A stretch of 46,856 bases of DNA, from sequence record PZ379178.1; one strand, 5' to 3'. The first letter of the stretch is position 1; each line of letters begins with the position of its first letter. Shown here piece after piece: positions 391 to 46,436 of this stretch. Under the pieces are notes generated by a model. That model did not search any database, was not told the origin of the DNA, and was given only the letters and a program-made list of their open reading frames with translations. The position numbers were made by a program, and so were the translations under genes. This DNA is from a phage.

Positions 391-1073
391 GCGTACTTCT
401 TAAGAACCCTTTCGATTTCTATTTGGATTACAGAACGGGCCATCATAATTCAACCGTCAACCCATCAATGGAGGTTGATGACTTTTTACATCAAAACATT
501 CTTGCGGCAATGGCTGGTGATGGTTGCTTGATTAAAAATACAGAAAAAGGAACGCATAGGCTATCTTGGAATATGGGAAATAAGGAGCACGCACTAAGCA
601 AGGTTGAAAGGTTTGCAAAACTAAACCCTAGATACAGGGAGAAGAAAAACCCTGGATTTGGCGACAACTGGTTTTGCGTATCAACATCATGTACGAAAGT
701 TCTGGATTCATATGCTGATAAGTACGGAAATTCTAAGGATGGTTACGATATTGGAAAGATATGCAGAGAGCTTAATCCAGTTGGTTGGGCTGCTTACTTT
801 GGTGATGATGGTCATTGCACTGTAAGCTCAGGGAAGAGGGTTGTAGAAATCCACACCGAATCATTTAGCAGGCGTGAAGTTCAATCAGTAGTTGATGCGC
901 TAATAGCATTTATTGCTAATGACGGAGTTAAGGTTAGAAGCTATATTGGCGGCAAGAAAAAGAGAGAGCTTTACTCAGTATCAATAACAACGAGGTCGGC
1001 ACAAGATGAGTTTTTTAAGAGAATTAGTAAGCACATGGAAAATGGCGTGGAATACAAAATCAAGCAAAATTAA
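366..1073 (+). CDS. LAGLIDADG-family homing endonuclease, free-standing ORF between intein halves
   Basis: Frame-0 ORF 219..1073 with two LAGLIDADG-like motifs (LAAMAGDGCL and AAYFGDDGHC); start 366 is first ATG with GGTGA-like SD, 219 is an alternative; overlaps both intein-half ORFs in a different frame. Confidence 0.55.
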   Translation: MPHSSKGLGVLLKNPFDFYLDYRTGHHNSTVNPSMEVDDFLHQNILAAMAGDGCLIKNTEKGTHRLSWNMGNKEHALSKVERFAKLNPRYREKKNPGFGDNWFCVSTSCTKVLDSYADKYGNSKDGYDIGKICRELNPVGWAAYFGDDGHCTVSSGKRVVEIHTESFSRREVQSVVDALIAFIANDGVKVRSYIGGKKKRELYSVSITTRSAQDEFFKRISKHMENGVEYKIKQN

Positions 1074-2716: not shown

Positions 2717-3136
2717 ATGAAAATCACAGACAAAGGTGATTACCTCGAGTTCTATGGCGGACCGGTGAAGTCATGCCCAAAGGAAGACGATGAACAAATC
2801 TTCTGCTCTGATTGGGTGAAATACAACTATCCGCAGATTGTTTACTGGCACACGATTAACGAAAATAAAAAGAGCATTGGTCAAGCAAGAAAAGACCAAG
2901 CCAAGGGGCTTCTCAAAGGTGTGTCAGACTGCTTATTTCTGATACCTGAGTCATTGCGTGGCGGTTATCCATTTGGCGCCATAGAGTTAAAGAGGGCTGG
3001 TAAAACGCAAGCAAGCCCAGTTAGCAATGAGCAAAAGTCATTCCTAAAAAGCGTAAGTGAATCAGGCGGTTTCGCAGCGGTGGCTTATGGAAGAGAGGGT
3101 TTTCTTGCGGCATTCGCAGAGATGATAAGAAAATAG
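2717..3136 (+). CDS. VRR-NUC-like PD-(D/E)XK nuclease
   Basis: 139 aa; GVSDCLFLIP ... FGAIELKRAGKTQ matches D...E-x-K nuclease core of VRR-NUC proteins; immediately follows helicase. Confidence 0.55.
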   Translation: MKITDKGDYLEFYGGPVKSCPKEDDEQIFCSDWVKYNYPQIVYWHTINENKKSIGQARKDQAKGLLKGVSDCLFLIPESLRGGYPFGAIELKRAGKTQASPVSNEQKSFLKSVSESGGFAAVAYGREGFLAAFAEMIRK

Positions 3137-3185
3137 CACGAATTGCTAAAGACGAATTGGTGAGTTGGTGTATTATCAACTCATC
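3134..3185 (+). promoter_or_regulatory. Box-hairpin-leader cassette (candidate phage promoter)
   Basis: Box TAGCACGAATTGCTAAA 3134-3150, hairpin GAGTTG/CAACTC, TATTAT 3171-3176, leader CATCGAAACG from 3182; ATG 3215. Confidence 0.5.
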
Positions 3186-4002: not shown

Positions 4003-4254
4003 ATGTTTGGATTAGATTTCCAGCCAAAGCATTATGATTTAGTGCATGGTAGTAGCGGAGCCAGGTTTAGAGCGATACCTATTGATGACTGGTTTCCACC
4101 TGACTATGTGGATGTTAACGCGAAGACGAAGGACGGTAAATGGGTACAGATTTACTACTCTCCAGCGTGCGGTAATCTGTGCATGACAGACATGGACCAA
4201 AAATTAGCAATTAGTGCTGATTTGTTGGATTTCTGGTTAAAAGAGGTTGAATGA
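4003..4254 (+). CDS. Hypothetical protein
   Basis: 83-aa ORF, 2 nt after previous stop. Confidence 0.5.
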   Translation: MFGLDFQPKHYDLVHGSSGARFRAIPIDDWFPPDYVDVNAKTKDGKWVQIYYSPACGNLCMTDMDQKLAISADLLDFWLKEVE

Positions 4255-4335: not shown

Positions 4336-5472
4336 ATGGCAGCAGCAAAGATTACCAACGAGCAATTAATCGAAGAACTGAAAAACGGCCTTACTAACAA
4401 GGCGATTGCAGAGAAGTATGGTATGAACATTCGTAACGTTGAGATTCGTCGCAGTAAGTTGGCTAAGAGTGGCTTGTTCGGGCATGGTAACGAAGGCATT
4501 AAGAAGCTAGTACCGGACGGATACTTGGTAAAAGGCACTTCGACCATGATTGATGCGGATGGGAATGAGAAGCTGCGTTGGGTTAAGACTTCAATTGATA
4601 ATGAGCGCCTTGAGATTCTGCTTGAGCAAGCACGAGAGGCATTTTGTTCTGACTTACCAAAGGCAGTTGCCAGTGAGTGCCCAGACATTGATTTTGATGA
4701 TGACACGATGGCTATGTATCCGGTTTTCGACCTTCACATTGGCGCAATGGCTCATAAGCATGAGTGCGGTGAAAACTACGACACTGCAACAGCAGAGAAG
4801 GTAATGAATAGCTTCTTTGATTATGCTGTAGATAAGGCTCCTAAATCAATAAATGCGACATTAGTTTTGGGGGGTGATTTTCTGCATTACGACTCTCTAG
4901 AGGCTAAAACACCAGCATCAGGACATATCTTAGACAGCGACAGTCGCTATGCTAAATTGGTTTACGTAGCAATCCGCTCAGTGCGTCGTGCGGTTTCAAG
5001 GATGCTTGAGAAGCACCAAATCATTGATATTAAAGTAATAAGTGGAAATCACGACGAAGCTGGGATGGTTTGGTTGCGTGCAGCATTGGCGGCATTCTAT
5101 GAAGACGAGGAGCGAATTACTGTCGACGTAAGCCCAGCAGCAATGCTGATGACAAGCTTCGGCTCAACATTGATTGGTTATACTCATGGTCACCAGATGC
5201 GAAAAGCTGAAACTCGACTTACAGTAATGGCTACAGACTTTCGTAAACTATTCGGTAACAGCGAATATGTCTATACACACTCGGGCCACTGGCATAGTCA
5301 GAAAATTACAGAAACAAACCTGGGTATCGATGAAGTTCATGGTCAGCTTGGCGCGCCAGATGCCTATTCAGCTAATGGAGGATGGCGCTCAATGCGTCAA
5401 GCAGCGGTAATCGTTTACCATAAGCGTTTTGGTGAGGTTGGTCGATTTATTTGTCGCCCTGAGATGTTCTAA
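4336..5472 (+). CDS. Calcineurin-like metallophosphoesterase with N-terminal HTH-like region
   Basis: Motifs DLHIG, GGDFLHYD, GNHDE, GHQM, GHWH in order typical of metallophosphoesterases; N-terminal LTNKAIAEKYGMNIRNVEIRR resembles a helix-turn-helix. Confidence 0.6.
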   Translation: MAAAKITNEQLIEELKNGLTNKAIAEKYGMNIRNVEIRRSKLAKSGLFGHGNEGIKKLVPDGYLVKGTSTMIDADGNEKLRWVKTSIDNERLEILLEQAREAFCSDLPKAVASECPDIDFDDDTMAMYPVFDLHIGAMAHKHECGENYDTATAEKVMNSFFDYAVDKAPKSINATLVLGGDFLHYDSLEAKTPASGHILDSDSRYAKLVYVAIRSVRRAVSRMLEKHQIIDIKVISGNHDEAGMVWLRAALAAFYEDEERITVDVSPAAMLMTSFGSTLIGYTHGHQMRKAETRLTVMATDFRKLFGNSEYVYTHSGHWHSQKITETNLGIDEVHGQLGAPDAYSANGGWRSMRQAAVIVYHKRFGEVGRFICRPEMF

Positions 5473-5473
5473 G

Positions 5474-5546
5474 TAGCACTTTTTGTTAATAAAGCCTCAA
5501 AGGATTGAGGCAAAATGAATAAACGATAACGAGATGAGGAGTTGTA
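5474..5546 (+). promoter_or_regulatory. Box-hairpin-leader cassette, variant box
   Basis: Box TAGCACTTTTTGTTAAT 5474-5490, hairpin GCCTCAA/TTGAGGC, leader AACGAGATGAGGAG; ATG 5547. Confidence 0.45.
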
Positions 5547-6020
5547 ATGATTTACGTGTTTGATATTGATGGAACTATTGCTAACAATGAACATAGAAGC
5601 CACCTCTTACCATCTAGTGACCTTCACTTGACTTCAAGTTGGAGTGATTACAATAGAGCCTGTTCTGGAGATTCACCGATAATTCCAATGATAAACATGA
5701 TGAATGCGTTAGCTGAGTTATCGCCAGTTTACATCATGACTTCAAGAAGTGACGAAGTCGAATGTATGACGCTTGAATGGCTTCAGTATAATAATATTAA
5801 TTATGATGGAATATATATGAGGAGTAGATTGGATAACAGAAATGACTATATCATTAAAGAGATGTGGCTAAATGATTTGTGTAATGGTGACAAAGCAAGT
5901 GTGATAATCTTTGAGGATAATCCTAATGTTATCAGTCACCTAAGGAATTGCGGATATACTGTAATGTCAGTTTGTGAATATAAAGAATTACCAAAAGACT
6001 GCGAATCTCACGGAGAATAA
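5547..6020 (+). CDS. HAD-superfamily phosphatase-like protein
   Basis: N-terminal FDIDGTIA (DxDGT HAD motif I); 73 nt downstream of promoter box 5474. Confidence 0.5.
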   Translation: MIYVFDIDGTIANNEHRSHLLPSSDLHLTSSWSDYNRACSGDSPIIPMINMMNALAELSPVYIMTSRSDEVECMTLEWLQYNNINYDGIYMRSRLDNRNDYIIKEMWLNDLCNGDKASVIIFEDNPNVISHLRNCGYTVMSVCEYKELPKDCESHGE

Positions 6021-6021
6021 A

Positions 6022-6576
6022 ATGAAAAAGTTAATCATCCTTAATGCACCCCCTGGTGCTGGAAAAGATACAGTTGCAGATATCATTGTTAATCTTGGAA
6101 TTTGCAAGGATAAGGTTTCATTCAAGTCACCAATGTTTAATGTTGCAAAAGGAATACTATCAAGCGATGAGTTTGATGAATTTATTAAGAATTACGATGA
6201 CCGAGAGTACAAAGAATCACCACATGAATTTCTTGGTGGAATGACGGTTCGTGAATTTATGATTTGGATTAGTGAGTCAGTTATGAAGCCAGTCTTTGGT
6301 GATGATGTTTTCGGTAAAAGGCTAGCGCAATCACTTGGTGATGGTTGCTATATCTGTGCTGATGGTGGCTTCGCTAGCGAGATTAATACTCTCATTGATT
6401 CAGGGGTTGAAGTTACTTTGATTAGACTTTTTAGGCCTGGCTATACTTTTGATGGAGATAGCCGCTCCTACATTCGCGGTGTCTGCGCAAGAGAAATTGA
6501 CGTTCATGTTGTAGATGGTGATATTGATGGAACCTCTGCTTTGGTAATGCACGTAATAAATAGCACGAATTGCTAA
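6022..6576 (+). CDS. P-loop kinase, dNMP-kinase-like
   Basis: N-terminal LNAPPGAGKDT P-loop and RPG motif as in phage deoxynucleoside-monophosphate kinases; start 6022 is ATG 1 nt after upstream stop (ORF track opens at 5974 in same frame); ends INSTNC* inside promoter box. Confidence 0.55.
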   Translation: MKKLIILNAPPGAGKDTVADIIVNLGICKDKVSFKSPMFNVAKGILSSDEFDEFIKNYDDREYKESPHEFLGGMTVREFMIWISESVMKPVFGDDVFGKRLAQSLGDGCYICADGGFASEINTLIDSGVEVTLIRLFRPGYTFDGDSRSYIRGVCAREIDVHVVDGDIDGTSALVMHVINSTNC

Positions 6577-6612
6577 ACAATCGCCGGAGTAATCCGGCAT
6601 AATTACTACATC
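6561..6612 (+). promoter_or_regulatory. Box-hairpin-leader cassette
   Basis: Box TAGCACGAATTGCTAAA 6561-6577, hairpin CCGGA/TCCGG, CATAAT 6598-6603 (22-nt gap from TTGCTA), leader CATCGAAAAC from 6609; ATG 6635. Confidence 0.5.
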
Positions 6613-6634
6613 GAAAACAACAGAGGATTCAAAA

Positions 6635-9954: not shown

Positions 9955-10029
9955 TACTTCTCTCCGTGTTGTTCTGAGCGGCCATTATATCAATAGCCGC
10001 TTATAATGCATTATCAATTAGTGCTATTT
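9955..10029 (-). promoter_or_regulatory. Box-hairpin-leader cassette (minus orientation)
   Basis: Reverse-complement box TAGCACTAATTGATAA (plus coords 10011-10026), hairpin GCGGCT.../...GGCCGC, TATAAT, leader ACGGAGAGAAG; precedes ATG 9954. Confidence 0.5.
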
Positions 10030-10184
10030 AGTAAGATGCAATCTATCTTGTAGTAGTCAAAGTGATTTTCTGAAGATGTTTCTTTGTTATATTTAAACTC
10101 CTGTGCTTTGAATTCTTCATCGAAAGCGGCAATCACTTCGCTTCCATCATAGTGTGTGCAACCACTTACAATGTATAATTTCAT
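10014..10184 (-). CDS. Hypothetical small protein (56 aa)
   Basis: ATG overlaps upstream stop (ATGA); ORF ends NSTN* inside promoter box; below ORF-track cutoff. Confidence 0.3.
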   Translation of the reverse strand: MKLYIVSGCTHYDGSEVIAAFDEEFKAQEFKYNKETSSENHFDYYKIDCILLNSTN

Positions 10185-10731: not shown

Positions 10732-10806
10732 GATCTCTTGCTCTCTTTCGTTTCGATGGAGTAAATATACGCCATCCGTGGCGGTGAGTTTTAGCAATTA
10801 GTGCTA
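10732..10806 (-). promoter_or_regulatory. Box-hairpin-leader cassette (minus orientation)
   Basis: Reverse-complement box TAGCACTAATTGCTAAA (10790-10806), hairpin CGCCACGGATGGCG, leader CATCGAAACGAAAGAGAG; precedes ATG 10731. Confidence 0.5.
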
Positions 10807-10955
10807 TTTTTTCTGGCCTTCTCAATTGCCTTCAACATAATCTCGTGAGACTCAAGCAGGTCCTCGTTAAACCAGTCCCCGCAAGGCCAACCCTTTCCGC
10901 TGTAAGCACTAATTATTTCCAGATCGAAATAGTTTATCTCAGATGGTAAAAGCAT
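10791..10955 (-). CDS. Hypothetical small protein (54 aa)
   Basis: Start overlaps upstream stop (TAATG); ends KNSTNC* inside promoter box 10790-10806. Confidence 0.3.
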   Translation of the reverse strand: MLLPSEINYFDLEIISAYSGKGWPCGDWFNEDLLESHEIMLKAIEKARKNSTNC

Positions 10956-11355: not shown

Positions 11356-11426
11356 ATCTCTCTCCTCGTTGTTGATGGATTCATTATGGTATCGTCGCCA
11401 GTTTTTGTCATTAGCAAAAAGTGCTA
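11356..11426 (-). promoter_or_regulatory. Box-hairpin-leader cassette (minus orientation)
   Basis: Reverse-complement box TAGCACTTTTTGCTAA (11411-11426), CATAAT, leader CATCAACAACGAGGAGAGAG; precedes ATG 11355. Confidence 0.5.
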
Positions 11427-11440
11427 TTCGTTGGATTTAT

Positions 11441-11548
11441 CTATTGTTGCAGCTATTGCAATGATTATCATGATTATTGCACATATAGCAATATTGCATG
11501 GAATGCAATGATGTTTTTGATTGTTGCAGAATTTGCAATGATTGATGT
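11441..11548. repeat. Iteron-like TTGCA repeat array
   Basis: ATTGTTGCAG-N-TTGCAATGATT at 11443-11467 and 11519-11543, plus inverted repeats ATTGC...GCAAT (11476-11492) and TTGCAT-GGA-ATGCAA (11494-11508). Confidence 0.6.
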
Positions 11549-11705
11549 GGGGTGAATGAATGGTGGATGAACTACCATACAAGTTGATTTTGATTCTTGC
11601 TGAGCCAATTTGGATATACACGTTATCGAAGTTATGGTGTGTATATGAGGTGCGCTTCCGAAGAATCATACACGCCTACCACGCTAGATTACGCAATGGT
11701 TACAT

Positions 11706-11762
11706 AATAATATCTATATATATCAACCTTTTACTATATTATTATTATTATTATATATATGT
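11706..11762. repeat. AT-rich (TTA)n element, copy A
   Basis: TAATATCTATATATATCAACCTTTTACT-ATATTATTATTATTATTATATATAT; near-identical copy at 39501-39556. Confidence 0.8.
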
Positions 11763-12027
11763 ATGTATATGGTGTAGATTGGTCGTATGGATGGGTCGAT
11801 AGTTTTTCTATGAAAACTACTAATTTTATCTATATAGATACATATGCATATCCCCGGCGAATCCGCGTAAAATCTTACACAGGGTAATTACACCAGCTAT
11901 AGCTGGGCTGAGAGGTCAAAAAGCGTAACCAATGCAGATATAAACACAACATAACACTTGATAACGCGTATATTCATGATACCATGGTTTCATCTTAACG
12001 AAGAGCAACCAATCAGGAGTAACGAAT

Positions 12028-12981: not shown

Positions 12982-13167
12982 ATGAAAACTAAAATGGTAC
13001 ATAAGAGCGAAGTTAAGATTGGCGATACTGTTATCCATCGTGGCTATCTTAGAACTGTAAATGCCAACACTTTTAGTAAGGATGAGTTTATGGGACTACT
13101 TCTTTGGGGCGACTCCTACCGGCTTGGGCAGGAGATGGTTGAAGTCATAATTGATGTTAAGTTTTGA
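12982..13167 (+). CDS. Hypothetical small protein
   Basis: 61-aa ORF; stop immediately precedes promoter box 13169. Confidence 0.45.
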   Translation: MKTKMVHKSEVKIGDTVIHRGYLRTVNANTFSKDEFMGLLLWGDSYRLGQEMVEVIIDVKF

Positions 13168-13168
13168 A

Positions 13169-13243
13169 TAGCACGAATTGCTAAACCTTCCGCAAGGCCA
13201 TTTGATATAGTGGCCTTATTGAAGCAAAGCAAAAGAGGATGTG
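13169..13243 (+). promoter_or_regulatory. Box-hairpin cassette
   Basis: Box TAGCACGAATTGCTAAA 13169-13185, hairpin AAGGCCA.../...TGGCCTT, TATAGT; leader diverged (AAGAGGA SD). Confidence 0.45.
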
Positions 13244-13474: not shown

Positions 13475-13704
13475 TTACAATTAACCTGTCAGAGAAAAAT
13501 GCAGCAATCCTTAAATCGATCATAATGAAGCCGATGCACTCTACGCTAACATTTGAGCAGATGCGTGTCGTGAAAGAGACTGGAGCACAAATCAACAATC
13601 AGCAGTTCGACGTATCAGACTTCGAGTCATCGCGCCAGTATGAGGCATTAAGCATTCAGAACGCTGGCTACCTAACTAACTGGGATAAGGCGACTAAGAA
13701 ATGA
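13471..13704 (+). CDS. Hypothetical small protein
   Basis: 77-aa ORF overlapping upstream stop (ATGA). Confidence 0.45.
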   Translation: MITINLSEKNAAILKSIIMKPMHSTLTFEQMRVVKETGAQINNQQFDVSDFESSRQYEALSIQNAGYLTNWDKATKK

Positions 13705-13851
13705 TTTTATATATCCATGAGTACTGGACTGGGAAGTTTAACACCGTTCGACATGTTAGAGTTTATGAAGATTATGTGAGTGCTTTCAATCAACAGAAGG
13801 TACTTGGTGGCACTGTCAAGGTTTGCGATGTTATAGATGAGATTTACTAAA

Positions 13852-13925
13852 TAGCATGAATTGCTAAACAATTGCCGGAGAAATCCGGCATAATTACCAC
13901 ATCGACAACGAGATGGAGTATAGAT
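13852..13925 (+). promoter_or_regulatory. Box-hairpin-leader cassette
   Basis: Box TAGCATGAATTGCTAAA 13852-13868, hairpin GCCGGA/TCCGGC, CATAAT, leader CATCGACAACGAGATGG from 13900; near-duplicate of cassette 6561. Confidence 0.5.
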
Positions 13926-14910: not shown

Positions 14911-15072
14911 ATGATTAAGATCGTATATATTGGTGAGGATGATTATATGGCGCGCTTAAAGCATGGCGACGTATTCTATGCAGAGCCTAGCGAAGATGGC
15001 AATGGGTACTTCATTAAAAACAAGCACGATGAGGAGCTTTACATAGCAAACCACGAGGCTCTTGTTTACTAA
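14911..15072 (+). CDS. Hypothetical small protein (53 aa)
   Basis: ATG with GTGAGGTGA SD; below ORF-track cutoff. Confidence 0.35.
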   Translation: MIKIVYIGEDDYMARLKHGDVFYAEPSEDGNGYFIKNKHDEELYIANHEALVY

Positions 15073-15212
15073 TGGATAACTACGAAACACCAAGCCAGTG
15101 GGCTAAACGGATGATGGATGAGGCTAAGACTGGCGAGGTTGCCATGATGTACTTCGAGCTGATGAATCTATGGAAGGAGCGTGAAGATAAAATAAACAGC
15201 ACGAATAGCTAA
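15072..15212 (+). CDS. Hypothetical small protein (46 aa)
   Basis: TAATG overlap with upstream gene; ends INSTNS* inside promoter box 15197. Confidence 0.3.
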   Translation: MDNYETPSQWAKRMMDEAKTGEVAMMYFELMNLWKEREDKINSTNS

Positions 15213-16074: not shown

Positions 16075-16150
16075 GTTCTGCTGGCGTAACAGGATAACGC
16101 AAAGACCTCCTAAGTCTTAGTTACTGGTTCGAGTCCAGTGCGGAACACCA
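16075..16150 (+). tRNA. tRNA-Arg (anticodon CCU)
   Basis: Hand-folded cloverleaf: 7-bp acceptor stem (one G-U), U8, 4-bp D stem, 5-bp anticodon stem with loop CTCCTAA (U33, CCT, A37), T arm ACTGG-TTCGAGT-CCAGT, discriminator A and encoded CCA. Confidence 0.8.
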
Positions 16151-17281: not shown

Positions 17282-18901
17282 ATGCTTCACAACTGGATTC
17301 TTAATTGGCGTGATGGTTGGATTGGTGAAATTATGGCTAATTTAGTTTGGGAGGAAATGACGCCAGCAGAAAAGATGGCGGTTAAGGCGATATCCACTCA
17401 TAGCTTCGAGGGTTTCTTACGAGTGTGGTTCCAGCTTACCCAGGGAGAGCGATACATACCTAACTGGCACCATAGATACCTTTGCAGAATTATCGATGAG
17501 ATTATTGCTGGTGAGCGTAAGGACACAATCATTAACATCGCTCCTGGCAGTGGGAAGACAGAGATTGCCTCAATTCACTTCCCAGCCTACTCAATGGTTA
17601 AGTTGAGAAAGGTAAGGAACCTGAATATATCGTATGCTGACTCACTGGTTAAGCGTAACTCCAAGCGTGTGCGCGACTTAATTAAGTCTGTTGAGTTCCA
17701 GGAGTTGTTCCCATGTAAGTTTGGTACGTGTAAGGATGATGAGCTACAGGTCCTGGATGACTATGGCAAGGTCAGGTTTGAGTCAATCTCTAAAGCCACT
17801 GGCGGCCAAATTACAGGCGCGAGGGGTGGATATATAACCGATTCGTATAGTGGTGCGGTACTGTTAGATGATTTTGACAAACCAGCCGACATGCTTTCTG
17901 CTGTTTTTCGCGCTAACAATCACGTGATGCTAAAGAATACAATACGCTCTCGTAGGGCGAGCTCCGTAAAAGGAAAGGCGACGCCGATTATCTCTATCCA
18001 ACAGCGCCTTCATGTGAACGATAGTACGTGGTTCATGATGAATGGCGGTATGGGTATTAGCTTCGACTTGATTAAAATACCGGCGCTCGTAACTGAGGAT
18101 TACGTCGACACGCTTCCTGACTGGATTAAGCAGCAATTCATTGATGACGTTCTATCAAGCGAATATATTGAGCGTGATGGTGTTAGGTACTATAGCTATT
18201 TCCCTGGCAAGGAATCTGTTCACGACCTAGTTGCAATGTGGGATTCTGATAGCTATACATTCCTTAGCCAGTATCAGCAAGAACCAGTAGCACTTGGCGG
18301 CAACCTGATTAACGTAGACTGGCTTCAACGCATTAGCGACACTCTGCGACCGCCAGCTAAGTACGATTACAGGTTTATGGTCCTTGATACTGCGATGACA
18401 ACCAAAAGTTACAGCGACTTTAGCGTCATGCAGCTATGGGGTTATAAGGATGGGAAGATTTATCTGCTTGACCAGCGGCGCGGTAAATTTGAAGCTCCTG
18501 AGCTCGAGGCTGAGTTATTGGATTTCGAGAAGATGGCTAGGGCATCCAATCAGATAGATGGCATCCTTCGTAAAATCATCATCGAGAAGAAAGCCTCTGG
18601 TATTGGCCTGATTCAATCAGCCGGAAGGGTTATGCGAACGCCTATCGAGCCGTACGTTCCGGATAACGATAAGCTGACTCGCGTAATGAGTGCATTGCCG
18701 CAGATTAAAGCTGGTAACGTAATCCTTCCGGAGTCTGCTACTTGGCTTAATGGCTTGCTAACGGAGATTGCGGCATTCACGGCAGATGATTCACATGTTC
18801 ACGATGACCAGATAGACTGTTTGACAATGGCTGTCAACCTGGTACTGAACATTGCAGAAGACCCTAAATCGAGGATGATGCGCCTCGCTGGCATCAAATA
18901 G
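17282..18901 (+). CDS. Terminase large subunit
   Basis: 539 aa; Walker A NIAPGSGKTE near N-terminus, acidic nuclease-type C-terminal half; position before portal; alternative start ATG 17336. Confidence 0.8.
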   Translation: MLHNWILNWRDGWIGEIMANLVWEEMTPAEKMAVKAISTHSFEGFLRVWFQLTQGERYIPNWHHRYLCRIIDEIIAGERKDTIINIAPGSGKTEIASIHFPAYSMVKLRKVRNLNISYADSLVKRNSKRVRDLIKSVEFQELFPCKFGTCKDDELQVLDDYGKVRFESISKATGGQITGARGGYITDSYSGAVLLDDFDKPADMLSAVFRANNHVMLKNTIRSRRASSVKGKATPIISIQQRLHVNDSTWFMMNGGMGISFDLIKIPALVTEDYVDTLPDWIKQQFIDDVLSSEYIERDGVRYYSYFPGKESVHDLVAMWDSDSYTFLSQYQQEPVALGGNLINVDWLQRISDTLRPPAKYDYRFMVLDTAMTTKSYSDFSVMQLWGYKDGKIYLLDQRRGKFEAPELEAELLDFEKMARASNQIDGILRKIIIEKKASGIGLIQSAGRVMRTPIEPYVPDNDKLTRVMSALPQIKAGNVILPESATWLNGLLTEIAAFTADDSHVHDDQIDCLTMAVNLVLNIAEDPKSRMMRLAGIK

Positions 18902-18970
18902 CACGTTTTGCTAAAGACGCGCCGCCAAGGATGGCTTATAGTTACTTCACGCAAACGAGAGGAGTAAAAA
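18899..18970 (+). promoter_or_regulatory. Box-hairpin-leader cassette
   Basis: Box TAGCACGTTTTGCTAAA 18899-18915, hairpin GCCA/TGGC, TTATAG, leader CACGCAAACGAGAGGAG; drives moron 18971. Confidence 0.5.
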
Positions 18971-27317: not shown

Positions 27318-27322
27318 ATTGA

Positions 27323-27398
27323 TAGCACTTTTTGTTAAAGGCTAAGTCGCGGATTGCTGTATAGTTCATTCATCGAAAAGAAATGAGAGATTAATGAA
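27323..27398 (+). promoter_or_regulatory. Box-hairpin-leader cassette, variant box
   Basis: Box TAGCACTTTTTGTTAAA 27323-27339, TATAGT, leader CATCGAAAAGAAATGAGAG from 27371; drives moron 27399. Confidence 0.5.
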
Positions 27399-33874: not shown

Positions 33875-36800
33875 ATGGCACAAATGGTCAAAACAAATGC
33901 GGAGCTATGTGATATGGCGGAAGAAATTAAGATTTATGGAAGTAAGGGCGGACAGCCAAAGCAGCACCAACCTGTAGAGCAGCCTGATAACCTGATATCC
34001 GTAAACAAGGTTAAGGTTTTGCTAGCTGTTTCTGATGGTGAGGTTGATAGCTCATTCTCCCTAAAGGACCTTTACCTTGCTGACGTTCCTGTACAGAACC
34101 AGAATGGCACATACAACTACGAGGGTGTAACGGCAGAGTTTCGCCCTGGCACACAGAGTCAGGATTACATTGCCGGGCTAGAGGGTGCTAACTCGGAAGT
34201 GCAAGTGAACAGGGAGATTAAAAACTCAACTCCTTACATCATTGCTGTTAATAACACCCAGCTATCAGCGATTAGGGTTAAGCTGTTTTGGCCTCGTCTG
34301 ATTAATCAGGAAAGTAACGGAGATCTTAACGGTACCACTTGCGAGTATGCGATTGACCTGTCCGTTGATGGCGCTACATACACTGAGTACACGCGCGGAG
34401 TAGCTAATGGCAAGACAACTAGCGGGTACGACAGAAGTATCAGGGTTAACCTTCCTGCTGAGTTCTCGAGTGCGTTGGTGAGGGTTCGTAAGATCACGGC
34501 AGATTCAGAAAGTTCGACGCTGGTTAACGACATGCAAATTACGACCTATCAGGAAGTAATTGATGCTAAATTCCGCTACCCACTTACAGCGCTGGTTTAC
34601 GTTGAGTTCAGTTCTGACCTCTTCCCTAACGGAATCCCGACGATTTCAATCAAGAAGAAGTGGAAGTTGATTCGCGTTCCGACTAACTACAACCCAGAGA
34701 CAAGGACTTACAGCGGAACCTGGAACGGCACCTTTAAGATGGCGTATTCCAATAACCCGGCGTGGGTTCTTTACGACTTGGTGACGAATCAGCGTTACGG
34801 ACTTGACCAGCGAGAGCTTGGCATTACTATTGATAAGTGGGGTCTGTATGAGGCGGCGCAATTCTGTGACCAGATGGTTCCAGATGGTAAGGGTGGAGTT
34901 GAGCCGCGCTACCTGTGTGATGTTGTCATTCAGCAGAAAGTTGAAGCATATCAGGTAATCCGTGATATTTGCTCTATCTTCCGTGGGCTGACATTCTATG
35001 ACGGCGAGCAGATAGGGATTGTTGTCGATAAGCCGCGTCAACCATCGTACGTATTCACCAATGACAACGTTGTTGATGGATTGTTCAACCGTACATTTGG
35101 TAGCGATAAGTCACTTTACACGGTTGCCAACGTTCAGTTTGATGACGTTGAAAACTCATACCAACAGGATGTTGAGCCAGTATTCGAGTTAGAGGCAACA
35201 AGGCGTTTTGGTTACAACCCGGTCGACCTTACAGCTATTGGATGTACTCGCAGGAGTGAGGCAAACCGCCGCGGGCGCTGGTTATTAAAGACGAACATTC
35301 GCAGCGAGACTATTAGTTTCACTACTGGTCTGGAAGGTATGATTCCAATGATTGGTGAGGTTATTGCAGTTAATGACCAGGCATGGTCTAGCAACTACAC
35401 CCTTAACCTTTCTGGTCGTATCGAGTCAGTAAGTGGGTTGCAAGTTTTTGTGCCATTTAAGATTGATGCTACTGCTGGCGACAGGATTCTAATAAACAAG
35501 CCTGATGGAATGCCAGAGTACAGGACCATTGCATCTGTATCTGAAGATGGTATGACGCTGCAACTTAATACAGCGTTTAGCTTTACTCCTCAGCCTGACA
35601 CAGTATTTGCGATTGATAAGGAAAATCTTGCTCTTCAGCAATATGTTGTGACCGGTATTCAAAAAGCAGACAGCGATGGAGATGATGCGTTTGGTTACAC
35701 GATTACCGCAGTTGAGTACGACCCGAACAAATACGACGAGATTGATTACGGCGTAAACATTCAGGACAGGCCAACTTCAATCGTGGAGCCAGATACATTA
35801 CTGGCACCCGAGAATGTTCAGGTTAGCAGTTACAGTAAGGTTGTTCAGGGTTTATCAGTTGAGACAATGGTAATCACGTGGGACAAGGTTCAGTACGCGA
35901 AAACCTACACGGTCCAGTGGCGCAAGGAGAACGGAAACTGGATTAACGTGCCGCGCACAGCAAGCACAGAGGTTGATATTGAAGGTATCTATGCCGGAAT
36001 TTACCAGGTTCGCGTAAGGGCCGTTTCTGATACTGAAAACGTATCCGCATGGTCTGACATTGTTTCAGTAAGCCTCACAGGCAAGATTGGGACCCCTTCT
36101 TCACCTACAGTAATCACCGCTTCAGATGATGAAATATTCGGCATTAGGGTTAAGTGGGGATTTCCTGAAAACTCAGCCGATACGTCATACACTGAATTGC
36201 AGCAAGTAGCCGACAATGGTGATGGTACTTATACACCAGAGAATGCTAGCCTTCTGACTCTGGTGCCTTACCCGAGTTACGAGTACTGGCATACTACACT
36301 TCCTGCTGGAAAGGTCATCTGGTACAGGGCGCGACTGATTGACAAGATTGGTAACGTCTCACCATGGACTGATTTTGTAAGGGGTATGGCAAGCGATGAT
36401 GTGTCGTCAATCATTGGTGATATTAAGGTTGATATAGAAAACTCAGATGGGTTCAAGTATCTCCAACAGAATGCCATTGAGTCAAACGGAGCTATTCAGG
36501 CGCAAGCGGAATCAATAATTGAGAACGCCCTGGCTAATGATGGTGACGTGCGTAGAATGACGAAGGAAAACGGCAAGAGGAAGGCCGAATTTGTTCAGGC
36601 TGTGAATCTTATCGCCGATGAAGAAAGGGCTCGCGTAGAGGCTCTGACGCAGCTTAAGGCGCAGATTGATGATGAGATTGTAGCTTCATTGACAAGGATT
36701 GATACGGCGCTAGCGGAAGAGACGCAAGCAAGGACCACTGCGGACACTGCTTTATCTGCAAGGCTAGGTGATAATGAGGCTGCGTTAAATGAGAAGTTGG

Positions 36801-38538: not shown

Positions 38539-38622
38539 TTTAGTATTCCCTAGAATGTGTGTTTCGTTTCAATGGAGTAATGATATCTCATCATTGAGAT
38601 TTGTCTTTAGCTATTCGTGCTA
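38539..38622 (-). promoter_or_regulatory. Box-hairpin-leader cassette (minus orientation)
   Basis: Reverse-complement box TAGCACGAATAGCTAAA (38606-38622), hairpin, leader CATTGAAACGAAACACAC; precedes lipoprotein gene ATG 38538. Confidence 0.5.
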
Positions 38623-39291
38623 TTTACTTTCCAGTAACAGCTTAATGTCGATACCAAGTTTATTCTCGATCAATCCGGTCAGTGCGTCCGTCTTTTCTTT
38701 AAGAGCAAAGCATTGCGTTTCATACTTAAACCTTGCTTCCATTTCATCGGAACGTGATGCCCAAGACTGCCGAGCCTCGCAAGCAAGCATATCTAGTTTT
38801 TCATCTGTATTCTTATCCATGAGAAGGATTTCATTGATTCGCTGCTCAGCAACGATTCGCTGACTAAGGTGAGCGTTCTGCGCATTAGCCACACCAAGCA
38901 TCATGCGTGCCTCTTTTAGCTCATCAATACTAACCATCTTGCTGATTACTTCCTGTTGAGTGTTAATGGTTTGCTGCATCTCTTTTAGCTTGTTTAGAAC
39001 CGAACGACGAACAGACTTTGACTCACGCATTCCGACAAGAAGCATTTGCTCCATATTAAGCACTGGTGAGTTGATCGACTTTCTATAACCACCTCTTCCC
39101 TCACTTTTGATTACGAAACTTTCGTAGTCAAACTCAAACCCCTCAATCTCATCCTCTATCCTCTCAACAAAGTCATTGTGTCGAACATCAGATTCACCAG
39201 CAACTAACCTCGCTGGGTTGATAACTTCATTCAAAAACTGATAACTGTTCATTTTCACATCTTCATTTAGTAGAGCTAGGTTCATTTTCAT
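38620..39291 (-). CDS. Rha-like phage regulatory protein (putative)
   Basis: N-terminal SYQFLNEVINPARLVAGESDVRHNDFVERI resembles Rha-family N-domain, coiled-coil C-terminus; start 39291 after AGAGAG SD. Confidence 0.4.
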   Translation of the reverse strand: MKMNLALLNEDVKMNSYQFLNEVINPARLVAGESDVRHNDFVERIEDEIEGFEFDYESFVIKSEGRGGYRKSINSPVLNMEQMLLVGMRESKSVRRSVLNKLKEMQQTINTQQEVISKMVSIDELKEARMMLGVANAQNAHLSQRIVAEQRINEILLMDKNTDEKLDMLACEARQSWASRSDEMEARFKYETQCFALKEKTDALTGLIENKLGIDIKLLLESK

Positions 39292-39380
39292 CTCTCTTTT
39301 TTTATTCTGGCTAAGCACCATTGCCGCCATGCGCACAAATATACCCAAATACTGCATCTTGTCTTTAGCAAATCGTGCTA
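39292..39380 (-). promoter_or_regulatory. Box cassette (minus orientation)
   Basis: Reverse-complement box TAGCACGATTTGCTAAA (39364-39380), TATATT, AAAAAAAGAGAG SD; precedes Rha-like gene. Confidence 0.45.
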
Positions 39381-39500
39381 TTTATCGCAAATTTACCCAT
39401 AAATCATGGTTACGCGTAATCGATGTAACTCGATGTATACCATATGCATCCGCGGGAAATCGTATACGCCTAGTTACGCCAGTTTACGCCATAGTTACAC

Positions 39501-39556
39501 TATAATATCTATATATATCAACCTTTTACTCTTATTATTATTATTATATATATTAC
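39501..39556. repeat. AT-rich (TTA)n element, copy B
   Basis: TAATATCTATATATATCAACCTTTTACT-CTTATTATTATTATTATATATAT; 28-nt core identical to 11708-11735. Confidence 0.8.
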
Positions 39557-39871
39557 TGTGTATATCATGTAACTACTGTTCTGGAGTGTTCCGGTTATAA
39601 TTTTTATATCATGTGATTTTATACAGTATTGCGCAGCACCTATACCTATGCACCCTCCGCTAAAATCGGTATACACGGTATACTCACTATTTACATTGAG
39701 CTATAGCTTGGCTTAAGTGGCGAAAAACGTAACTCATGCCAATGTCTACACGTAGTTACAAAATTATACGCGTATACTTGATTAATTAATAGGTGATACC
39801 AATTGGACTATGCGTTGTGCGTACGGCATCATTAACTCATCGAAAGCACGCAACAATAGAGAGATAGAGAA

Positions 39872-40069: not shown

Positions 40070-41041
40070 ATGACATTTAAAGTTTATACGAACGACGAGC
40101 TAACCAATGAAGCCTATCACGAAGAGAAAGACCATATCTCTGGCTCTTCGCTGGCTGAGATTCTTGCTACTTCTCCAGCAAAATGGAAATTTAAGCAGCG
40201 CAGCAACTCAAGTGCAGCACTAAAGTTTGGCACTTTGAGCCATACGATGATGCTAGAACGTGAAGTGTTCGATTCCACTTACATGCGAGCTACTGACTTT
40301 GACGAAGTGGAAGGATTGATTACTAGCCAAACAGCTTTATCGGCAGCGCTTAAAAAAGTTGGCGTTTCCGGCACGTCAGGGAAGGGTTATAACGAGCTTG
40401 TGGAGATGATGTATAAGTCTGGCGAGGATTGGCCGGTTAAATGGTTAATTGAGCAGCAGGAGAGCGCTGAGGCGTTAATTAGTGGCAAGGAGCTGGTTAG
40501 TGCTAAAGATTACGACAAGGTAATCGCAATGCGAGAAGTTCTGACCAATATTCCGGCTTACGATGCGGTAATTAATTCACCAACAGCACAGAAAGAGCTG
40601 TCAATCTTTGGTGAGATTCTCGGCTGCGGCGTTAAGGTTCGGCTTGACCACGTGGATGTTGTTAATGGAGTGGTTTACATTACTGACTATAAAACAACAG
40701 CAGACGCAAGCCCGAGAGGATTTGGTAAGTCAGCTTATGACCATGGTTACCTGTGTAAGATGGCACTTCAGCGCGATTTGTTTGTTAAAGCATTCAACGA
40801 AAAGCGTAAGGTTGTGGTTCGACTTCTGGCTCAGGAGAAAACAGAGCCCTACTTACCTATGTGCTACACACTTACAGATGAGCAGCTTCGCATTGGGCGC
40901 TTACAATATTTAGAGGCTCTGGCTGTTTACAAGCAGTGCAAGGAACTTGATGATTGGCCTGGATACAGTAATGGGATTACAGAGCAAGATTTGATGATTC
41001 CTGAGTGGGTAAATAAGCAGTATCAAGAATTACTAAAATAG
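40070..41041 (+). CDS. PD-(D/E)XK-type exonuclease (putative recombination exonuclease)
   Basis: VRLDHVDV ... VYITDYKTT matches D...D/E-x-K nuclease core; directly upstream of annealase and SSB. Confidence 0.5.
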   Translation: MTFKVYTNDELTNEAYHEEKDHISGSSLAEILATSPAKWKFKQRSNSSAALKFGTLSHTMMLEREVFDSTYMRATDFDEVEGLITSQTALSAALKKVGVSGTSGKGYNELVEMMYKSGEDWPVKWLIEQQESAEALISGKELVSAKDYDKVIAMREVLTNIPAYDAVINSPTAQKELSIFGEILGCGVKVRLDHVDVVNGVVYITDYKTTADASPRGFGKSAYDHGYLCKMALQRDLFVKAFNEKRKVVVRLLAQEKTEPYLPMCYTLTDEQLRIGRLQYLEALAVYKQCKELDDWPGYSNGITEQDLMIPEWVNKQYQELLK

Positions 41042-41111
41042 CACGAATTGCTAAAGACAAAATTAACTGGTGGGGTATCATTACCCCATCGAAACGAAAG
41101 AGAGATGTGGA
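41039..41111 (+). promoter_or_regulatory. Box-hairpin-leader cassette
   Basis: Box TAGCACGAATTGCTAAA 41039-41055, hairpin GGGGTA/TACCCC, leader CATCGAAACGAAAGAGAG from 41087. Confidence 0.5.
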
Positions 41112-44778: not shown

Positions 44779-44802
44779 TGTGTAAAGTCTCCATTTGTAA
44801 AG

Positions 44803-44819
44803 TAGCACTAATTGCTAAA
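44803..44819. promoter_or_regulatory. Isolated box copy TAGCACTAATTGCTAAA with ambiguous orientation
   Basis: Box overlaps tail fiber 5-prime region (start 44778, minus) and lies beside primase terminator hairpin 44853-44866; no downstream leader on plus strand. Confidence 0.35.
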
Positions 44820-45792: not shown

Positions 45793-45860
45793 AGTTACCT
45801 CCATAAACAATAAAGGCACTATACACAATGTATAGCGCCACTGTTTATCAATTCGTGCTA
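45793..45860 (-). promoter_or_regulatory. Box-hairpin-leader cassette (minus orientation)
   Basis: Reverse-complement box TAGCACGAATTGATAAA (45844-45860), palindrome CTATACATTGTGTATAG, GGAGG SD; precedes primase ATG 45792. Confidence 0.5.
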
Positions 45861-46340
45861 TTTCCCTTGCTCTTTATCTTTTCGTGCTGCTTCGTTAGCG
45901 GCCTTAATCTTGCGCCATGAGCGACACTCTGGTTTAGTTGCTAGCTCAGCCTCAGTAACAACACGCAGCATATGACGCTTCTTGCAACGTAGAGTTAGCG
46001 GTTTCCCGTTACCGTCGAATTGCAGATCTGGTCGGCAGAATGTAGCGCGAAAACCTTCTCCATTTCGCTTATAGTAGTTGTGCGACAACTGAGCGCCACG
46101 CGCAGAAATCATCCCGCGATCAAACCATTGCTCTACAGTCTGGTGAGATACATTTAACTGCTTGGCGATATTGGCCTTCGTGCCGTAGAAATCAAGAACC
46201 ATCTCCAGACGAGCTCGTAGCCCAGCCTTTACTTCATCTTTCAATACGTAGTAGCCTGACGGTCGTTTGCGCTGTTTCTTGTCTTGCGTGCGGATGGTTC
46301 CGTTATTGCCGTTGATAGTTCGCTTGTCAATTTCACACAT
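45858..46340 (-). CDS. HTH-type DNA-binding protein (putative regulator)
   Basis: 160 aa, basic; TKANIAKQLNVSHQTVEQW resembles helix-turn-helix. Confidence 0.45.
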   Translation of the reverse strand: MCEIDKRTINGNNGTIRTQDKKQRKRPSGYYVLKDEVKAGLRARLEMVLDFYGTKANIAKQLNVSHQTVEQWFDRGMISARGAQLSHNYYKRNGEGFRATFCRPDLQFDGNGKPLTLRCKKRHMLRVVTEAELATKPECRSWRKIKAANEAARKDKEQGK

Positions 46341-46363
46341 CTCATTACCTCAATAGCACTTTT

Positions 46364-46436
46364 TGTTAAACAATAGGTTCGATAATTGCTATTATACAGC
46401 AATGCAACGAACTAACAAACTGTAAGGGTATTTAAA
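46364..46436 (+). promoter_or_regulatory. Box cassette, variant box
   Basis: Box TAGCACTTTTTGTTAAA 46364-46380, TATTAT, leader CAATGCAACGAAC; precedes helicase ATG 46437. Confidence 0.45.

Follow-up and report, generated by a model that had tools for sequence, protein, structure and literature searches.

In the 46,856-nucleotide stretch of phage DNA given as sequence record PZ379178.1 (hereafter the window), a short conserved box, aaATAGCACnnnTTGCTAAA, recurs in approximately 18 copies, 17 of which point at a downstream gene, and at most of these copies the preceding gene ends inside the box or directly against it. Taken together, the evidence makes it probable that the box forms the upstream part of a promoter cassette present in many copies, that genes end there through packing, that the C-terminal tails encoded by the box are incidental and that the cassettes recombine with one another. 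The finding is thus one of tight packing combined with known cassette logic, that is, of ordinary biology. An earlier sequence-only reading of one copy, which closes a deoxynucleoside monophosphate (dNMP) kinase-like gene, had placed a promoter box at 6556-6579 and described it as overlapping stop codons and supplying conserved tails to upstream proteins. The box is real, with its 24-mer AATAAATAGCACGAATTGCTAAAC lying one nucleotide earlier than was proposed, at 6555-6578.

The window holds the greater part of a T1-like siphophage genome (Drexlerviridae, Braunvirinae). Over 60-88% of the query, it is 91-94% identical to its nearest records, the Escherichia phages ES and AN_ECEAS (Braunvirinae), and its gene order is that of T1, Rtp, TLS and Rogue1. 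Within the window, the focal 24-mer has eight matches with up to three mismatches (0.00 expected) and the 17-nt core TAGCACnnnTTGCTAAA has 23 (6.1 expected), of which approximately 18, on both strands, are convincing. For comparison, we used 12 genomes (the window and 11 other Drexlerviridae), which carry 16-22 copies of the box apiece, and a sample of 120 IMG/VR loci obtained from a scan with one exact box variant; the box-bearing IMG/VR contigs are nearly all 41-53 kb long. Positions are counted below from the first T of the TAGCAC motif (box T).

The element itself has been described before. It is the 21-nt direct repeat of phage TLS, also present in T1, Rtp and Rogue1 (PMC11447400), and the window boxes agree with the consensus given there, aaATAGCACnnnTTGnTAAAA. 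The likeness extends to approximately 20 copies per genome, orientation with transcription, a position approximately 76 nt before start codons and a division into A, T and G subclasses. The paper places the repeats between genes, and in the available text neither it nor its supplement mentions that stop codons overlap them; the tails encoded by the box, its fixed geometry towards a -10 hexamer and a CA, the link between stem-loop and upstream gene and the recombination junctions set out below likewise go beyond it. A literature search for the box string itself found no paper.

Thirteen of the 18 window boxes touch the stop codon of an upstream gene, six through the TAG of the box, four through a TAA or TGA at its 3' end and three through a stop one nucleotide ahead of it. 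The box translates as AAA-TAG (Lys, stop) in frame 0 and as AAT-AGC-ACN-AAT-TGC-TAA (NSTNC, stop) in frame +1, and in frame +2 a stop is supplied by the common TAAA or TGAA flank; box and flank together thus hold stops in all three frames, so that any incoming open reading frame (ORF) is closed at the box. Stops one base ahead take the form TAAaTAG or TGAaTAG. The ORF ends quoted in the sequence-only reading are all correct (5974..6576 and 15072..15212, 10014..10184 and 10791..10955 on the minus strand, and TAG stops at 3136, 18901 and 41041), as is its kinase label for 6022..6576, which matches the dNMP kinase family phrog_139. Its list of box-ended genes was nevertheless short, lacking the TAG stops of 11424..11669, 38620..39357 and 45858..46340 (all on the minus strand) as well as 4336..5472, 12982..13167 and 13701..13850, which end one base ahead of a box. 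The very tight packing that it described, with the box and coding 3' ends physically fused, is borne out, since one cassette makes up the whole intergenic space. In the mechanism that we propose, the preceding gene would run up to the box because the cassette is the entire intergenic region.

This arrangement is not peculiar to the window. In the annotated genomes of T1, Rtp, TLS and Rogue1, 49 of 80 boxes hold the upstream stop at -4 to +15 of box T (offset 0, n = 24; +13, n = 10; -4, n = 9; -3, n = 5; -1, n = 1), and only eight have a stop 5-60 nt upstream. Without recourse to annotation, 152 of 225 boxes in the 12 genomes touch a stop, compared to 16 with a stop 13-60 nt upstream, and in IMG/VR the corresponding figures are 344 and 22 of 456 distinct junctions (stop at the box TAG in 212, at +13 in 38, at -4 in 32 and at -3 in 27). 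Overall, approximately 70% of boxes in other Drexlerviridae genomes and IMG/VR touch a stop. When junctions were collapsed to 203 clusters of upstream C-termini, 26 of these clusters were found to use more than one stop offset. In the window, box TAGs account for six of approximately 13 TAG stops, and same-strand junctions that lack a box have a median gap of approximately 10 nt. Two of the three frames meet a stop inside the core box, so an arriving ORF will usually end there, and the overlap might on that ground be put down to coincidence, the box containing TAG and TAA and some ORFs ending at them by chance. We give this explanation next to no credence. It leaves unanswered why ORFs reach the box at all, in a pattern that is the same in the 12 genomes and in IMG/VR; of approximately 57 boxes that closely follow a gene in the annotated genomes, 49 have the stop at -4 to +15 against eight at 5-60 nt upstream, and the use of frames is far from uniform. 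As a separate observation, boxes with a TTT centre are seldom read in the +13 frame (1 of 93 in the 12 genomes and 7 of 171 in IMG/VR), and those with a GAA centre are more often so read (16 of 75 and 23 of 208, respectively).

Where the stop lies at +13, the upstream protein takes its C-terminal tail from the box, as the sequence-only reading had stated. Its description of these tails as conserved calls for a correction: they are conserved only because the DNA box is, with fixed codons and a sequence that depends on the box variant. In six families (dNMP kinase, orf10791, orf15072, VRR-NUC, RecE and the helix-turn-helix (HTH) regulator), such tails are restricted to genes followed by a box in frame +1; in other phages, the orthologues stop at the TAG of the box, one nucleotide ahead of the box or, where there is no box, without a tail. 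The dNMP kinase has an ...INSTNC end in ES as in the window (in full, VMHVINSTNC*) and a ...VINSTN end in Msk. In TLS, E6 and T1 it is closed by the box TAG, and in BHUENT2, JYSS2 and mtp10 it has neither box nor tail. In orf15072, the INSTNS tail is confined to the window and ES, and five boxless phages end ...EKK or similarly. VRR-NUC ends at the TAG in eleven genomes and with NSTNC in Rogue1. RecE stops at offset 0, -4 or +13 or has no box, depending on the phage, with a YGTNS tail in mtp10 and JYSS2 and, in Rogue1, an 11-nt deletion that joins the gene to the box (DSTNS). The regulator tails NSIFS (T1 gp23), DSTDC, ESTNC and DSTKS each track the local box variant. The alignment of orthologues that had been suggested as a check thus found tails only where a box follows in frame, and no boxless orthologue with the same tail. 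A tail-first search of 1.5 Mb of T1-like DNA gave the same answer: each of the 87 distinct ORFs ending in xST[NKDF][CS] or NSTN does so in box DNA (87/87), the Ser codon always being AGC and the stop nearly always TAA. Codons fixed to this degree give no sign of selection at the protein level.

The same pentapeptide on four unrelated window proteins, and on dozens in related phages, could also be read as a selected protein feature (a shared C-terminal tag, degron or interaction peptide), with the similarity in DNA being secondary. This we judge highly improbable, given that there is no synonymous codon variation, that the same DNA is equally conserved when untranslated or in another frame, that orthologues in every tested family do without the tail if the frame differs or the box is absent, and that the tail follows the box variant (NSIFS, DSTDC, ESTNC, DSTKS, YGTNS). 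Family profiles also stop short of the tail. The PHROG and Pfam matches of the tail-bearing genes end ahead of the box-encoded residues, as in 6022..6576, where the match to phrog_139 (E 6e-42) spans residues 1-179 of 184 and leaves the tail outside. Profile matches to 10791..10955 (phrog_4548), 15072..15212 (phrog_1312) and 10014..10184 (Pfam DUF7336) indicate that the small tail-bearing ORFs are real genes. On the sequence evidence, tails of the NSTNC type are not protein features but the accidental translation, following small indels at the junction, of untranslated-region DNA.

The positions that the box does keep are those towards the downstream gene. The consensus of 658 distinct cassettes is AATAGCACgaATTGCTAAAac-N16-G-n-TATAAT-N5-CA-..-AAAC. 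Fourteen of the 18 window copies have the -10 hexamer at +37 from box T, start codons follow at approximately +68 to +83 (for the copy at 45860, the start was taken from the printed sequence), and a conserved CA, the predicted transcription start, falls at +48/49; most downstream starts in the annotated reference genomes are 70-84 nt past box T. Relative to the predicted CA start, the box spans approximately -51 to -33, its TTGCTA -40 to -35 and the G lies at -14, and the near-palindrome TAGCA-N5-TGCTA is centred at +7 from box T, or -42. Boxes in divergent regions, which have no upstream gene (12658, 39380 and 46354), keep the same spacing, so what is constrained is the DNA in its relation to the downstream gene, not an upstream message or protein. 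The cassette would accordingly be read, in order, as box, 20-nt spacer usually with a stem-loop, G at -14, -10 hexamer, CA start, short purine-rich leader and start codon.

Several promoter classes were tried against this layout and rejected. TTGCTA cannot serve as a canonical sigma-70 -35, being 22 nt from the -10 and thus too far; at 16-18 nt spacing, no -35 was found beyond a weak TAAACA or AAGACA, and a generic promoter scan showed no enrichment (45 sites against 44.6 expected; 19 against 19.8). Sigma-54 promoters have TGGCAC-N5-TTGC (GG-N10-GC), whereas the box has TAGCAC-N3-TTGC (AG-N8-GC) and a sigma-70-type -10 at a fixed distance. The MotA box of T4 middle promoters, (a/t)(a/t)(a/t)TGCTTtA, is centred at -30, whereas the TGCT of the present box lies at approximately -39 to -36 and is followed by AAA rather than TtA. 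The UP element, with the consensus nnAAAWWTWTTTTnnnAAAnnn, has a location, approximately -38 to -59, that the box shares, but not its sequence: the most invariant box positions are G, C, A, C and TTG, and there is no A/T tract. The cassette does show the layout of a class-II activator-dependent promoter, with a dyad near -41.5 of a start that is itself predicted, a -10 present and a -35 absent or poor. It is therefore probably a sigma-70 promoter of activator- or upstream-element-dependent layout.

In such a promoter, a dimeric protein would bind the box and activate transcription in the class-II manner; the likeliest such protein, and the only evident candidate, would be the Cro/cI-type HTH regulator encoded at 45858..46340, working like lambda cI at P_RM. 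A lambda cI dimer at OR2 activates P_RM (class II), and the likeness takes in a near-palindrome of approximately 15 bp with half-sites one helical turn apart, a centre near -42, a -10 with a poor -35, and a phage-encoded Cro/cI-type HTH protein whose promoter faces the box promoter. The two systems differ in that the present regulator has an extra FCRPD C-terminal domain and approximately 18 predicted sites rather than one operator region. In phage Mu, the activators Mor and C bind a dyad near -43 of middle and late promoters that have a -10 and no -35; the resemblance is in dyad position and promoter architecture, and the regulator has no Mor-family match in Pfam. Its top structural matches, with PDB 1rio among the fold matches, cover only approximately 60-70 residues, consistent with the HTH region alone, and a sequence search against PDB returned nothing significant. 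Past the HTH, the regulator family conserves a further domain (residues ~95-140), marked by the motif GFRAsFCRPDLxFDxNGK and a pair of invariant Cys. All 114 regulator homologues retrieved have at least 45% identity; where they sit on long contigs, these are generally of 41-53 kb, and most hits that carry a name come from phages of enterobacteria or Vibrio.

The regulator has a promoter of its own that is independent of the box, a canonical TTGTTA-16-TATAAT at 46418..46391 (minus strand), and a box lies in its leader. This promoter and the box promoter of the helicase gene stand back-to-back with adjacent -10 hexamers at 46391-46396 (minus strand) and 46390-46395 (plus strand). A back-to-back layout with a box in the regulator leader would suit autoregulation, and TLS has the same regulator/box layout (PMC11447400).

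The location of that box in the leader of the regulator's own transcript would also fit a different role for the element, as a repressor or roadblock site (stoperator-like) or a host-factor site rather than an activating element, with the stop overlap still a by-product of packing. A repressor site is what the TLS authors propose (PMC11447400), and boxes in inverted orientation a short way ahead of certain late genes (window 44803; T1 15069 and 18833) point the same way. Set against these are a centre near -42 with a -10 and no -35, which is the usual geometry of an activator, the single fixed distance at which nearly all copies face the downstream gene, and the virulent nature of the phages, with no immunity repressor evident in annotated relatives. 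We consider a repressor or host-factor site unlikely. Stoperators of the L5 type are asymmetric repressor sites in transcribed regions of a temperate phage, and the T1-like family is virulent. The orientation rule of the boxes matches that of stoperators, and the boxes lie at one fixed distance upstream of a -10. Concerning the inverted copies, the perfect box at 44801-44819 has counterparts at the equivalent site in Rtp (33762) and T1 (34902), and inverted boxes also directly precede late genes in T1 and TLS, the major head gene among them; the box may have a second role at such genes.

Comparison with relatives also bears on how the cassettes move. Of 143 BLAST alignment endpoints between the window and five relatives, 14 fall within -8 to +20 of box T, compared to 1.6 expected (p ~1e-9), and most of these box-edge endpoints lie 1-5 nt ahead of box T. 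Homology with ES ends at a box edge at 38624, and homology with both ES and Rtp at 10028/10029. The window cassette at 3134 equals the ES cassette at 33925 up to CATCGAAAC and the ES cassette at 34179 thereafter. It is thus a chimera of neighbours, and the two phages are set apart there by exactly one unit, which comprises a ribosome binding site, a gene, a box and a spacer. The flanks of ES box 22852 are those of two window boxes, 39380 on the upstream side and 38622 on the downstream side, and so the window has one extra unit, the anti-repressor-like gene 38620..39357. Because they are repeated approximately 18 times per genome, the cassettes would act as joints for homologous recombination at which single-gene units are added, removed and swapped. 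The loss caused to a gene by cassette recombination is at most a few C-terminal codons, as in Rogue1 RecE. Of the earlier proposal of cassette insertion immediately after or into genes, the cassette as a unit stands, and the evidence supports crossover between repeated cassettes, not insertion into genes, as the probable mechanism. Side observations concern the HNH endonuclease gene that AN_ECEAS has in place of the DUF7336 gene 10014..10184, where ES has only a hypothetical fragment annotated; this replacement (window 10030-10179) has one boundary at the box edge 10029. In ES, an HNH gene is inserted just ahead of the large terminase gene.

A number of points weigh against the reading of the box as a promoter element at which genes end through packing. 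The foremost is a preference for the TAG frame, which holds at 61% when junctions are collapsed to the 203 upstream C-terminus clusters (142:47:43, p 2e-18) and is 73% when the IMG/VR counts are taken as they stand, compared to the one third per frame expected from simple packing, which leaves the bias unexplained. The junction counts take in related genomes and are thus not fully independent. The putative link between regulator and box consists of co-occurrence and layout, and a literature search returned no transcription-start, binding or reporter data for the boxes and no transcript mapping for Drexlerviridae. The TLS paper leaves the function of the 21-nt repeat open between a stoperator, an enhancer and an UP-like element (PMC11447400). 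Lastly, the spacer stems had to be rejected as canonical intrinsic terminators, a T run following only approximately 3% of them.

The strength of the spacer stems varies with the upstream gene. Window spacers have a mean minimum free energy (MFE) of -10.4, compared to -6.65 in the background (p 4e-4). Across 591 cassettes, those at which a gene ends have a mean of -13.2 and those with no upstream same-strand gene one of -8.2, and 88% of gene-following cassettes have an MFE of -8 or below. Where the stop lies at +13, stems are weaker and start slightly further downstream (median +22 compared to +19, p 0.004). Versions with a stem and T run occur in a few relatives (ES, Msk and Rogue1). These patterns point to a putative role in the upstream transcript, for example in attenuation or 3'-end stability. 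On the opposite strand, several spacer stems (6582-6599, 13873-13890 and 5494-5511) precede the T-rich box complement ATTGTTTAGC and have terminator-like scores; they may serve to halt antisense transcripts.

One could go further and hold that the main task of the box lies at the 3' end of the gene ahead of it, its three-frame stop and stem-loop forming a terminator, 3'-stabiliser or processing module to which the -10 is secondary. The stops in three frames, the stronger stems where a gene ends at the box, the shift of stems downstream with +13 stops and the labelling of several of these stems as terminators by the T1 annotators all lean that way. We find it improbable: boxes that have no upstream same-strand gene are fully conserved with the same +37 spacing to the -10, the distance of the box is fixed to the -10, CA and start codon but not to the stem-loop, T runs are rare after the stems, and the box TAG and TAAA are conserved even when they do not act as stops. 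A variant that leaves the promoter in place treats the box as a selected 'universal joint', in which three-frame stops let recombination bring any gene in upstream and yet avoid read-through fusions, and the site of termination relative to the stem-loop tunes upstream transcription into the next unit. It has a small chance of being right, and would explain the TAG-frame bias (61-73%), the weaker distal stems at +13 and the stronger stems at gene ends. If true, translation termination, transcript 3'-end formation and re-initiation would be coupled within approximately 50 nt.

The closest analogue of the promoter cassette favoured here is the promoter early stem-loop (PeSL) element of T4-like phages, which comprises a stop codon, an AT-rich region, a promoter with a stem-loop, a ribosome binding site and a start codon and acts as a recombination joint (PMC2839356, PMC4122927). 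Both cassettes span the upstream stop to the downstream ribosome binding site and start codon, have a stem-loop in or next to the promoter, occur in many repeats, flank small non-essential genes and take part in single-gene indel crossovers. PeSLs, however, have consensus sigma-70 -35 and -10 sequences and an AT-rich upstream region, whereas the box cassette lacks a -35 and has a specific near-palindromic box 5 bp further upstream, in a different phage family. Terminator activity and mini-circles have been shown experimentally for PeSLs.

The packing also follows a familiar logic. Compact phages have overlapping stop/start junctions (ATGA, TAATG) and morons, and these share with the box cassette the absence of spare bases and the gain or loss of a promoter-plus-gene unit. 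The difference is that ATGA and TAATG are overlaps of coding with coding sequence, whereas here a coding end overlaps a transcription signal. For the annotation of T1-like genomes, a C-terminal ...NSTNC, ...NSTFC or ...K followed by TAG should be recognized as box sequence rather than as the mark of a protein family, and the box itself marks the edge of a transcription unit. The results suggest that single-gene shuffling by promoter/stem-loop cassettes, as in T4-like phages, also operates in an unrelated small-siphovirus family, in which an upstream box replaces the -35. They also supply a promoter model for a classical phage group, with a start predicted approximately 49 nt past box T and a candidate activator of Cro/cI type. 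The features on which this model draws are collected in Table 1.

Table 1. Boxes and associated features of the window, with the way each box meets the genes on either side.
Feature	Coordinates	Strand	Remarks
Focal box AATAGCACGAATTGCTAAA	6559..6577	+	T of TAGCAC at 6561; frame +1, read by upstream gene, gives N-S-T-N-C-stop
dNMP-kinase-like gene	6022..6576	+	Longest ORF from 5974; last five codons and TAA (6574-6576) are box sequence
Spacer stem-loop CGCCGGAgtaaTCCGGCA	6582..6599	+	Between focal box and -10 hexamer
-10-like hexamer CATAAT	6598..6603	+	37 nt past focal box T
Focal cassette, downstream part	6610; ~6622-6627; 6635		Predicted start A (cAtcgaaa); ribosome binding site; ATG of next gene
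Box	3132..3150	+	TAG (3134-3136) is stop of VRR-NUC gene 2717..3136; next gene from 3215
Box, TTT class	5472..5490	+	TAA of exonuclease gene 4336..5472 one base ahead; PNK phosphatase gene from 5547
Box, TTGATA variant	10010..10028	-	DUF7336 gene 10014..10184 ends LLNSTN, TGA within box; helicase gene starts 9954
Box	10790..10808	-	Gene 10791..10955 (phrog_4548) ends KNSTNC, box TAA
Box	11410..11428	-	TAG is stop of 11424..11669
Box, variant TTGCCTAA	12656..12674	+	Touches no upstream gene; nearest same-strand stop 111 nt upstream
Box	13167..13185	+	TGA of gene 12982..13167 one base ahead
Box, TAGCAT variant	13850..13868	+	TAA of gene 13701..13850 one base ahead; cassette 91% identical to cassette 6554-6618
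Box, variant CAGCAC..ATAGCTAAA	15195..15213	+	Gene 15072..15212 (phrog_1312) ends INSTNS, box TAA
Box	18897..18915	+	TAG is stop of large terminase gene 17282..18901
Box	27321..27339	+	After terminator-like hairpin with T run; upstream gene end 33 nt earlier; only box in structural gene block
Box	38606..38624	-	TAG is stop of anti-repressor-like gene 38620..39357
Box	39364..39382	-	Divergent region, no upstream same-strand gene; with 38620..39357 forms one-gene unit absent from ES
Box	41037..41055	+	TAG is stop of RecE-like exonuclease gene 40070..41041
Box	44801..44819	+	Opposite to both flanking genes, just upstream of tail-fibre gene start; stop for no gene
Box, TTGATA variant	45844..45862	-	TAG is stop of HTH regulator gene 45858..46340; then primase gene
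Box of helicase promoter	46352..46370	+	Back-to-back with regulator promoter
Cro/cI-type HTH regulator, candidate box-binding protein	45858..46340	-	phrog_2856; homologue of T1 gp23 and Rtp52

Box-like matches within genes at 904-920 (plus strand) and 4203-4219 (minus strand) have two mismatches each and no conserved cassette sequence downstream, which makes a functional cassette unlikely at either site; in ES, the match at 904 is kept at the same place. A search against Rfam returned tRNA only, namely a tRNA-Arg gene (anticodon CCT) at 16075-16150 (plus strand), with 96% identity to the tRNA-Arg region of Rogue1. Two copies of an AT-rich non-coding element of approximately 300 nt were found at 11660-11990 and 39440-39790, with 75% column identity and a near-identical core, TATAATATCTATATATATCAACCTTTTAC..TTATTATTATTATTATATATAT. 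Both lie at strand-switch regions, and a related stretch occurs near the start of the ES record. An origin is one possible role for this element, and a group of early promoters is another.

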